From the IMG/VR virus record IMGVR_UViG_2684623127_000006: DNA of 64,000 bases. The stretch is one strand, 5' to 3'. Below are positions 43,612 to 45,383 of the stretch, one piece after another; the stretch's first letter is position 1, and every line of letters begins with the position of its first letter. The DNA comes from a virus (Duplodnaviria > Heunggongvirae > Uroviricota > Caudoviricetes). The translations under genes were made by a program, and so were the position numbers. The notes beneath the pieces were generated by a model. It saw only the letters and a program-made list of their open reading frames with translations, was not told the DNA's origin and ran no database searches.

Positions 43612-44181
43612 TCAATCCGCCTTTGTTATTTTCCCTTTGCCTGTATCAGCCAGGACAAAATCAATCAGCATATTCGCTTCATTTACCAGCGTACGGATTT
43701 TTGATACATGCGCGGCTTTAACCTGTTTCCACTCATTCAGCCCGGTAGCAAACACACTGGCAATGTTTTTATCCCGTTTCATGTCAGCACAAGCCTGGTT
43801 GAGTTCTTCCATCACGCTCATTTTACGGGGATTAACGACAAAACCCTTCGTCCAGTACTCGTAAAGAACATCGTCGCACTCTTCCTGATACCGGATGACC
43901 TTATCGCGGATTTCGGGTTTTACTTTGTTGGGATTAATGGTTTGTAGCCAGCCGGCAAGTTTTCGAAGTGGCATGGACACCATATTGCGTTGTTTCCCAT
44001 CCTCAGCAACCATAACGATTTCCGTTATAGTTGACGCAAAACGCTGTCTTAACTTAGCCAACTGTGATTGCCAGGCCAGCCCCATCCCCGCAACGACAGG
44101 TTTCATGGGAACGTATGGTTCGCCATTATGGTTAACTACATAAAGAGAGTTGCCGTGAAACGGCACGGCCATCATATTCAT
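43612..44181 (-). CDS. antirepressor-like protein (Ant/Rha family)
   Basis: 189-aa ORF between endolysin and Rz; family call from memory. Confidence 0.45.
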   Translation of the reverse strand: MNMMAVPFHGNSLYVVNHNGEPYVPMKPVVAGMGLAWQSQLAKLRQRFASTITEIVMVAEDGKQRNMVSMPLRKLAGWLQTINPNKVKPEIRDKVIRYQEECDDVLYEYWTKGFVVNPRKMSVMEELNQACADMKRDKNIASVFATGLNEWKQVKAAHVSKIRTLVNEANMLIDFVLADTGKGKITKAD

Positions 44182-44451
44182 CGGTTATTTCCTTTTAGTG
44201 ATGAACCTTGTCTCACAGGAATCCAGCCCACAGAAAGGCACCGACAGCCAAACCGGTATCCTCAAGGGTCATCCTGAAAGGTTCTGTGTTGTGAGATGCG
44301 CGTGAGATGCGCAGAAATGACAAAGGCATCATTACGGTGCCTGAGTGTTAAACAACTGTTTTGACTTTATTCACTTACATTTTGCCAATTTGCAGGATTT
44401 CGTGTTATCCGTCCATGTAAGCAAACCTCATTTTTCAGCAAAATATTCTGC

Positions 44452-44985
44452 TTATCTGTCGATTCCCCAGCACGCCAGCGCGCTCTCCTGGTCACGACGG
44501 GATACCTGACCGTAACAGTTATTTGAGCGAATACGGCAGTCCCTGCCACCGTCCTTAATCCACCAGCGAATCGCTTCGCAGGCACCTTTTCGATCTCCTG
44601 CATTAATCCGTCTGTAAAACGTCGACGGGAAACACTTACCGGGGCCAATGTTGTACGGACAGAATGACGCGATCCCCGCTTTCTGGGGTTCGGTCAGCGG
44701 CACTCTGATGTTTTTCTCCACCCATGCCAGCGCCTTATCACGCTCAATGGCGTTAACCCGGTCGCATTTTTCCTTCGACAGCTTCATGCCAGGAATAACA
44801 GGCTTACCATCCCCCCGGGTGGCTCCACGGCAGATGGTCCAGATACCCGCACCATCACGGTATGCTGTGGTGTGGTTACCTTCCTTTTCATCCAGAAACT
44901 GGTCGAGGATTTCAGGCGCAGACGCCCCTGCACCAATCAGCGCCAGAACGGCAGCCGACAGGCCGTATCTGATTTTTGCGTTCAT
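44452..44985 (-). CDS. SAR endolysin (phage 21 R-like lysozyme)
   Basis: 177 aa with N-terminal signal-anchor-release helix and lysozyme-like region (…ICRGATRGDGKP…). Confidence 0.8.
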   Translation of the reverse strand: MNAKIRYGLSAAVLALIGAGASAPEILDQFLDEKEGNHTTAYRDGAGIWTICRGATRGDGKPVIPGMKLSKEKCDRVNAIERDKALAWVEKNIRVPLTEPQKAGIASFCPYNIGPGKCFPSTFYRRINAGDRKGACEAIRWWIKDGGRDCRIRSNNCYGQVSRRDQESALACWGIDR

Positions 44986-45035
44986 GGATATTTATCAGGG
45001 TTTATCGATTTCAAATCCCTGGATATGTTAAGTCT

Positions 45036-45383
45036 TCAGGCCAGCGGTGGAGTCTTCAGAGAACCCGTAATTATTCCCGGTAGTTTTCCTCTGTAGGTTA
45101 TCAACACATCCTGCGCCTCTAAAATTACGGGGCGCTTTTCCGGCAACGGACCATCCCCTTCACATAACCCGGCAGCAACATCCATGAAAAACTGCTTCGC
45201 CTGCTTTTTCGCCTCAGCTTCGTAAAACTCCAGCGTGGCACCTTCAGTACGGTCAAGACTAATCGCCACATCTGGCAACAACAGTGACGGATACCCACCA
45301 ATTTCCAGTGCCACAGTAACAGTAATCTTATCCGGGTAATTATTTATCCCTTTAACAACCAGTTCGTATTTTTTCTTCATCAC
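45036..45383 (-). CDS. hypothetical protein inserted between holin and endolysin
   Basis: 115-aa ORF, no recognisable domain, tightly packed in lysis cassette. Confidence 0.4.
   Translation of the reverse strand: MMKKKYELVVKGINNYPDKITVTVALEIGGYPSLLLPDVAISLDRTEGATLEFYEAEAKKQAKQFFMDVAAGLCEGDGPLPEKRPVILEAQDVLITYRGKLPGIITGSLKTPPLA

Follow-up and report, generated by a model that had tools for sequence, protein, structure and literature searches.

Why does a phage lysis cassette carry genes that seem not to be lysis genes? The question is raised by IMG/VR virus record IMGVR_UViG_2684623127_000006 (Caudoviricetes), from which we analysed 64,000 nucleotides (nt) of DNA, hereafter the window. On its minus strand, two open reading frames (ORFs) are embedded among the lysis genes of a lambdoid prophage: one of 115 amino acids (aa) between the holin and endolysin genes, and an "Ant-like" one of 189 aa between the endolysin gene and Rz/Rz1. 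A first-pass annotation made from the sequence alone had described both as non-lysis genes that would be co-expressed with the lysis genes, with lysis timing, anti-repression, and defence as candidate roles. The ORF list combined with Pfam and PHROG scans gave the order esterase, terminator-like hairpin, holin, 115-aa ORF, lysozyme, gap, 189-aa ORF, 48-aa ORF, and Rz/Rz1. All minus-strand ORFs were found where that annotation had placed them, in the order it gave; it had overlooked the 48-aa ORF at 43466-43612 and the structured nature of the 270-nt gap before the Ant-like gene.

With moderate confidence, we read the embedded genes as accessory passengers ("morons") of the Q-dependent late operon, in which the 115-aa protein, a member of the YdfR family, would be a factor acting on RNase E or RNA and the Ant-like gene would encode a separately gated protein of the Rha type. 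The biochemical functions of both are those that we infer. The arrangement itself, annotated for more than 20 years in Shiga toxin (Stx) phages and K-12, and both protein families are already known. Many E. coli O157:H7 chromosomes contain the 2.8-kb stretch at 100% identity, and identity is 99.4% with phage YYZ-2008 and 98.2% with Stx1 phage BP-4795; all of the genes carry annotations in both phages, and the BP-4795 record has the same gene set, including "ant". The Min27 record describes ant as a "possible regulator of host cell lysis", and RefSeq names the products, in cassette order, class II holin, YdfR family protein, lysozyme, phage antirepressor N-terminal domain-containing protein, hypothetical protein, and lysis protein. 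Since the genes are annotated in BP-4795, Min27, K-12 Qin, and RefSeq, the arrangement was on record before this analysis, and the leader in front of the Ant-like gene is possibly its only new point.

The two embedded genes

The two genes come and go independently among related cassettes. The gene ydfR occurs alone in K-12 Qin, mEp460, and 2H10 (S-ydfR-R-Rz), ant and the 48-aa ORF (orf48) occur without ydfR in Min27 (S-R-ant-Rz), and both genes are together in the window and in BP-4795; the phage 21 cassette presumably has neither. Thus, neither gene is needed for the holin, endolysin, and spanin machinery. When compared with holins, antiholins, endolysins, and spanins, the two proteins matched no PHROG lysis family and showed no lipoprotein signal and no transmembrane (TM) segment (maximum KD19 of 1.18 and 0.82). 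These results bear out the first-pass view of both as non-lysis genes, and the PHROG matches of the two proteins are confined to families of unknown function or transcription regulation. Accessory lysis regulators such as T4 RI/RIII, P2 LysA/LysB, P1 LydB, and Mu releasin are likewise encoded by small genes interleaved with holin and endolysin genes; unlike them, YdfR and the Ant-like protein have no relationship to lysis families in PHROG, have no TM segment, and are dispensable modules. Both ORFs are real genes rather than chance ORFs, as indicated by ratios of nonsynonymous to synonymous substitution rates (dN/dS) of about 0.4 for the YdfR-like gene and 0.07-0.15 for the Ant-like gene; on the latter, purifying selection is strong, and its synonymous sites (dS) are saturated. 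Sequence searches of solved structures matched neither protein, and no NCBIfam model matched either of them or the 48-aa protein.

The Ant-like gene (43612..44181, minus strand) encodes two Pfam domains, P22_AR_N (PF10547; 154.6 bits, E = 1.4e-45), which is 49.6% identical to aa 1-126 of P22 Ant, and ORF11CD3 (27 bits against a Pfam cut-off of 25, E = 5.5e-6). Neither P22_AR_C (PF10548) nor Phage_pRha (PF09669) gave a Pfam match. The protein spans only positions 7-210 of the 317-position PHROG 524 "Ant" profile, and a long-form relative (in locus L033) does carry P22_AR_C. A truncated pseudogene of an Ant of about 300 aa was ruled out, as the short form, itself full-length, recurs in many genera: across Enterobacterales, a P22_AR_N plus ORF11CD3 form of 175-199 aa is kept at 60-94% identity, and at least 10 genera have it (Escherichia, Salmonella, Photorhabdus, Xenorhabdus, Serratia, Hamiltonella, Arsenophonus, Sodalis, Proteus, and Providencia). 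The full-length gene is present in 264 phage records, and 46 records cover at least 80% of the whole stretch. In other genera the gene adjoins lysis genes of differing endolysin and spanin families, following Rz in Photorhabdus and lying between the lysozyme gene and Rz in Hamiltonella and between the lysozyme gene and a DUF2570/LysC spanin pair in Serratia. An AlphaFold2 (AF2) model of the protein has an alpha/beta N-domain and a long C-terminal helix. Foldseek searches with this model returned nothing at E <= 1e-3, the best matches, all weak, being to the Mbp1 APSES DNA-binding domain.

The label "Ant-like" is misleading. The protein has no P22_AR_C, and its architecture and size, like the place of its gene, are those of P22 Rha; judged by its domains, it is better seen as a Rha-type regulator of the Bro network that corresponds to P22 Rha but differs from it in the N-terminal domain. 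P22 Rha consists of Phage_pRha and ORF11CD3 (96.7 bits) and has 178 aa from its probable true start (see below); the Rha proteins of HK639 and SPN9CC also have Phage_pRha. The window protein and P22/phi80 Rha (P22 orf201) have in common the ORF11CD3 C-domain and a similar size (189 and 178 aa), and both genes lie in a late operon beside lysis genes, behind a leader of terminator, hairpin, and long hairpin. They differ in the N-terminal domain, which is P22_AR_N in the window protein and Phage_pRha in P22 Rha, with marginal pairwise similarity, and in exact position: P22 rha comes after Rz/Rz1 (13-19-15/Rz1, then rha), whereas the window gene lies between R and Rz. P22_AR_N and ORF11CD3 are both on the domain list of the domain-swapping "Bro network", into which the domain mix of the 189-aa protein fits (PMC10111431). 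The rha gene is a late-operon gene that is harmful to lytic growth in hosts without integration host factor (IHF) (PMC4936722).

It is possible, but we consider it doubtful, that the 189-aa protein is instead a true antirepressor, made late and inactivating CI-type repressors, which would lock induction or derepress other lambdoid prophages of O157. The identity of its N-domain to P22 Ant would fit, several Bro-network proteins are proven antirepressors, the Ant protein of Stx phage Phi24B speeds late-promoter activation (PMC3064807), and AnrP of Gifsy-1 activates its prophage (PMC4825925). However, Phi24B Ant is the only Stx-phage Ant for which we found experimental work in the literature, with no data on the lysis-cassette gene, and it is the product of a different gene that lies before qut, outside the lysis cassette; its likeness to P22 Ant is mainly C-terminal (PMC3064807), yet P22_AR_C is absent from the window protein. 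P22 Ant itself shares only P22_AR_N with that protein, and the window gene, unlike P22 ant, lies outside any immI-type region. The P22 immI region carries mnt, arc, and sar, with the sar promoter annotated. The leader described below is absent from all long-form Ant loci searched and present before the window gene. The closest counterpart by architecture, Rha, has phage-growth inhibition, not derepression, as its known phenotype, and repression would already be lifted once the late operon is on.

The 115-aa ORF (45036..45383, minus strand) is counted from a GTG at 45383; the start used by RefSeq, an ATG at 45380, gives 114 aa. The first-pass annotation had called its function unknown, whereas a profile search placed it in a named family, YdfR/DUF1327 (PF07041; 156.7 bits against a cut-off of 25, E = 1.8e-46, profile positions 1-92 of 93), and in RefSeq an identical protein bears the name YdfR family protein. 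Few members are known: 282 clusters out of 5.8 billion and, by profile search, 92 representatives out of 1.84 billion make the family very small, and ydfR was present in 101 of 50,697 phage records, all of them E. coli lambdoid phages. In K-12 Qin (essQ-ydfR-rrrQ-rzpQ), ydfR lies between a class II holin gene and a lysozyme gene, the same position as in the window, and mEp460 and 2H10 have the order holin-DUF1327-endolysin-Rz.

Two modules are apparent in the family alignment, an N-terminal three-strand-plus-helix domain (aa 1-73), whose core has an invariant LEFYE motif, and a conserved C-terminal segment (aa 80-112) that is also found joined to a different N-terminus. AlphaFold predicted three strands and a helix over residues 1-73 with good confidence and nothing confident beyond them; by 10-residue block, the AF2 predicted local distance difference test (pLDDT) was 72-92 across aa 1-70, and it was under 50 across aa 74-114. 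Identity between the window protein and K-12 YdfR (P76160) is 47% and is confined to residues 1-74. The remainder is unrelated, being a helical tail in K-12 YdfR and a conserved PEKRP...GKLPG..TGSLKTPP module in the window protein. The two also differ in that Qin is cryptic whereas the ydfR allele of the window is identical to those of inducible Stx phages. Many family members have 176 or 183 aa, with a coiled-coil-like C-terminal extension (proteins P0007, P0012, and P0111), and the 50-nt spacer between ydfR and the endolysin gene (44986-45035, minus strand) may be a relic of such an extension, now deleted.

In a 2026 paper, K-12 YdfR was found by two-hybrid and co-purification experiments to bind the N-terminal (catalytic) half of RNase E; the interaction maps to residues 1-72, the protein co-purifies with RNA, its over-expression altered few transcripts, and almost no ydfR reads were found during normal growth (PMC13232886). 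These RNase E-binding residues coincide with the domain conserved in the window protein. Because its N-domain is homologous to the RNase E-binding part, the window YdfR is most likely a late-acting modulator of host RNA metabolism; on this homology, it is probably a host-directed factor that acts on RNase E or RNA and is made together with the holin. Co-expression with the holin gene is likely because the ydfR ATG lies 4 nt past the holin stop codon, with a GGAG-type Shine-Dalgarno (SD) sequence within the holin 3' end. The co-expression with lysis genes proposed in the first-pass annotation thus stands for ydfR. For the Ant-like gene it is too simple, as a terminator-like hairpin and an SD-pairing leader lie in front of that gene.

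The tight junction with the holin gene could also mean that the YdfR-like protein acts in the cytoplasm to set the timing of the pinholin, binding a cytoplasmic part of the S21-type holin or antiholin in the manner of T4 RIII, which we regard as improbable. Every E. coli, Shigella, or phage ydfR example that we saw lies between an S21-type holin gene and a signal-arrest-release (SAR) endolysin gene, and a genetic screen, in the form in which the RNase E paper cites it, ties ydfR to envelope integrity (PMC13232886). However, Min27 has the same holin and endolysin types without ydfR, and the sole biochemical data on YdfR point to RNase E and RNA (PMC13232886). The most distant DUF1327 members are stand-alone proteins of 72-76 aa whose genes have the lambda-like tail genes M and L (Phage_min_tail and Phage_tail_L, respectively) on either side, with no holin gene nearby (L010 511-741, L011 3501-3719, and L012 249-467 in our set of loci); the domain is thus a late-operon passenger rather than specific to lysis. 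Holin-YdfR fusion ORFs in databases (P0010, P0068) would favour this role, but a single-base frameshift underlies them, and they could reflect sequencing error or decay. Fusions of this kind in public databases have 173-187 aa (also P0088 and P0091), with the frameshift near the holin 3' end, and real membrane-tethered variants are a further possibility beside sequencing errors and prophage decay.

A conserved structured leader before the Ant-like gene

The 270-nt gap between the endolysin gene and the Ant-like gene (44182-44451, minus strand) is a conserved structured element, not plain spacer. The stretch of about 170 nt in front of the Ant-like ATG aligns across four genera and comprises an intrinsic terminator (hairpin plus U-run), a small hairpin designated P1, and an imperfect hairpin of about 100 nt that ends just before the start codon. 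In the window, the long hairpin occupies 44179..44284 and ends at the Ant-like ATG, the 5' part of the leader (44285..44352) holds a terminator-like hairpin with a U-rich tract and P1 (GCGC-AUCUCAC-GCGC), and a window-specific spacer (44353-44451) lies upstream, all on the minus strand. In helix 1, at the base of the long hairpin, the AAGG core of the SD sequence is paired with CCUU. The terminator stems of other genera vary in sequence and keep their complementarity, and RNAalifold recovered three pairs of P1, two of them with double changes.

We used profile and covariance searches to follow this element. An nhmmer profile of the leader stretch matched 20 loci of the collected set, and 22 of 22 homologous sequences folded individually into the architecture of terminator, P1, and long hairpin. 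A covariance model built from nine sequences (R1) found 24 copies, and a second model (R2) found 31, including sequences outside its training set: P22 rha (7.8e-11), the Rha genes of HK639 and SPN9CC, and a Bro-N gene. The window leader scored E = 2.8e-5 with R1 and E = 7.6e-12 with R2. Over the 31 consensus pairs of the long hairpin, which form five helices, 93.7% of the cells were paired in the model-based alignment, compared with 69% in shuffles and 40-49% in slid-partner controls. Changes on both sides were seen in 28 of the 31 pairs, with 218 compensatory cells against 65 expected, and a further count gave similar figures. The conservation of the leader hairpin is thus strongly backed by covariation. 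RNAalifold applied to plain MAFFT alignments either missed the long hairpin (three pairs) or proposed a different helix, which a scan of all column pairs in the model-based alignment did not support; the same scan found no alternative helix, and a riboswitch-like two-state leader was dropped. Rfam models gave no match at E <= 1 (cmscan) over 42300-46100 of the window or in six related loci, and at the gathering score over the whole window the leader was also unmatched.

A role for the 170-nt element as DNA rather than as translation-controlling RNA, for instance as a mosaic-boundary linker for recombination or a promoter or operator, appears quite unlikely. Its exact placement at module boundaries before varied cargo genes, the short inverted repeat of P1 as a potential operator, and the absence of a thermodynamic signal in the window copy would all suit such a role. 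On the other side, pairing is kept through the 218 double changes, and the helices persist while the sequence varies, even where the dS of the adjacent gene is saturated. Many of the pairs are G-U, and on the opposite strand these would read as A-C mismatches; their frequency indicates that the structured molecule is the sense-strand RNA. No sigma-70-like promoter was found in the 270-nt gap by a promoter scan and no LexA-box-like site by eye, and a conserved IHF site in the leader, a possible reason for the IHF dependence of rha, was not found.

The cargo behind the leader varies. In addition to Ant-like genes, the leader precedes KilA-N, Bro-N, Rha, and TerB genes; R2 found it before no long-form Ant gene with another C-terminal region (the one scanned for domains, L033, has P22_AR_C). 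By blastn, the E. coli version of the leader is in 308 phage records, including 933W-type, P22-like, and Klebsiella phages. The same prophage has a second copy at 48799..48902 (minus strand; nhmmer 7e-10, R2 E = 0.015), directly upstream of a TerB-family gene (48369-48797; Pfam TerB, 4.8e-14) and downstream of the phage tRNA cluster and a terminator at 48960-48943. A third, at 880..980 (minus strand; R1 E = 0.018, R2 E = 2.5e-4), lies in another prophage remnant, with a TerB-like ORF on its downstream side and tRNA genes on its upstream side. Hamiltonella and Symbiopectobacterium each have two tandem units of leader plus cargo (one Ant-like, one KilA-N) beside or within the lysis genes (L006 4001-5818 and L026 3974-5525, respectively), those of Hamiltonella between the lysozyme gene and Rz. 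The leader thus behaves as a portable unit that moves with its gene.

In P22 (NC_002371), the leader lies at 3041-3147 of the extracted locus (L095), and the annotated GTG start of rha (record position 39575) falls inside the hairpin. An in-frame ATG at position 3145 of the locus, preceded by an AAGG SD sequence, aligns with the start codons of all homologues. The annotated rha start is thus probably placed within the leader hairpin, and the true protein would then have 178 aa rather than 201 aa.

A known parallel to this arrangement is the isrK-orf45-anrP locus of Gifsy-1, where, as in the window, an anti-repressor-like gene lies downstream of a terminator and a leader. The anrP leader, about 135 nt, is conserved as nucleotides rather than as protein, and the gene is translationally silent until RNA opens the leader (PMC4825925). 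Unlike the Gifsy-1 locus, the window and related loci have no isrK match in Rfam searches, and the window has no upstream ORF coupled to the Ant-like gene and no detected alternative helices.

Taken together with the gene order, these features suggest a course of expression. As ydfR abuts the pinholin gene, YdfR would be made together with the holin and, by homology, would modulate host RNA metabolism late in infection. Only Q-modified polymerase would read through the terminator into the Ant-like gene, and the SD-embedding hairpin would then damp or gate its translation separately from the lysis genes. Damped translation would make sense because Rha-type proteins are harmful when over-expressed. 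Candidates for opening the hairpin are RNase III, a trans-acting RNA, and a protein. We tentatively propose, with less confidence than the passenger reading itself, that the terminator, P1, and the SD-embedding hairpin together form an undescribed, widely conserved cis-regulatory RNA that, in the late operons of temperate phages of enterobacteria (P22 and Stx phages among them), may gate the translation of Bro-network (Ant, Rha, KilA-N, Bro-N) and TerB genes.

Several observations weigh against the passenger reading and the gating that it includes. The terminator hairpin of the window leader is degenerate, and a promoter/terminator scan called no terminator at its position. The window leader alone is not more stable than shuffled sequence (z = -0.44), and the pair counts given above were made on alignments that had been fitted to the covariance model. 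The SD sequence is not predicted to be more strongly paired than those of neighbouring genes, nor did predicted accessibility set the leader apart from them, and for this reason we claim only the conserved pairing of the SD core and not repression. On the protein side, the ORF11CD3 match of the window protein is barely over the cut-off and its pairwise similarity to P22 Rha is weak. The RNase E data come only from the K-12 homologue (47% identity over 74 aa), where few transcripts changed, and the position of ydfR directly after an S21-type holin gene, constant among the E. coli phages examined, would also be explained by a lysis-timing role.

The 48-aa ORF and the remaining features of the window

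Between the Ant-like gene and Rz lies orf48 (43466..43612, minus strand; phrog_4906, 1.5e-30; RefSeq CDS WP_000539792). Its ATG shares bases with the ant stop codon (TGATG), and its end is 7 nt short of the Rz ATG. It encodes a single-pass membrane protein with one strong TM segment (KD19 2.82) and is present in 276 phage records, with identity down to 63%; PhiR12_2_star has it without the Ant-like gene. None of its matches is to a lysis family. Being the only embedded product with a feature of the lysis-modulator type, orf48 could touch the lysis process itself.

The other genes of the cassette, all on the minus strand, are of recognised types. A NanS-p-like SASA esterase gene (46040-47890; Pfam/PHROG) is followed by a strong terminator-like hairpin of 11 pairs and a T-run (45647-45673), about 55 nt upstream of the holin start codon; given this hairpin, the lysis genes themselves would need antiterminated transcription. 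The holin (45385..45591, 68 aa) is of the S21-type class II, a pinholin (PF04971 Phage_holin_2_1, 7.3e-33; also a holin in PHROG and a class II holin in RefSeq). The endolysin (44452..44985, 177 aa) is an R21-like lysozyme of the SAR type (PF00959 Phage_lysozyme, 1.5e-24), with a Gly/Ala-rich SAR-like segment at its N-terminus, LSAAVLALIGAGASAPEIL, taken from the translation, and a triad E35-D44-T50, whose spacing was read directly from the translation. The i-spanin Rz (42991..43458; PF03245, 4.9e-50) contains the o-spanin Rz1 in its +1 frame (43053-43238; PF06085, 1.7e-21). Further along, we noted a YlcI/YnfO (DUF3950) gene on the plus strand (42401-42628), in a stretch of low GC content (36-39%) between Rz and an HNH endonuclease gene (41994-42359, minus strand), which is itself just upstream of the small terminase gene.

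Rfam searches at the gathering score identified several other RNAs. Two matches to the small RNA STnc100 (102 and 105 bits) are at 48028-48200 and 110-282 (both minus strand), the former between the TerB/DUF3927 genes and the NanS-p esterase gene and the latter just past the TerB-like ORF of the other prophage remnant; an STnc100 match is also present in HK639, upstream of its holin gene. Matches to sok antitoxin RNAs (52139-52313 and 5598-5772, minus strand), to DicF RNAs (60472-60523 and 12994-13045, plus strand), and to the ALIL frameshifting pseudoknot typical of IS3-family elements (53666-53782, plus strand), together with two tRNA clusters, confirm that the window covers parts of two lambdoid prophages.

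Meaning for lambdoid lysis cassettes

The defence function offered in the first-pass annotation, in which the embedded genes would serve anti-phage defence or superinfection exclusion from the prophage, is the least likely of the explanations, since, despite the precedent of lambdoid late-region morons that often serve the lysogen, such as bor, and the same leader before a TerB-family gene, PADLOC matched none of YdfR, the Ant-like protein, and orf48, no promoter was predicted for expression in the lysogen, and K-12 ydfR is nearly without reads in normal growth (PMC13232886).

In the form in which it was first noted, the finding matters little, as the order has long been annotated and both proteins belong to named families. 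Two points seem worth following, the conserved leader and the placing of "Ant" with the Rha type, by which the "antirepressor" of Stx-phage lysis cassettes is better viewed as a Rha-type regulator than as P22 Ant. The RNase E binding of K-12 YdfR provides a concrete hypothesis for a gene that would be co-made with the holin in Stx1 and Stx2c phages. The shared leader, which is absent from Rfam, would offer a handle on how phages express passengers separately from the lysis and toxin genes on the same pR' transcript.

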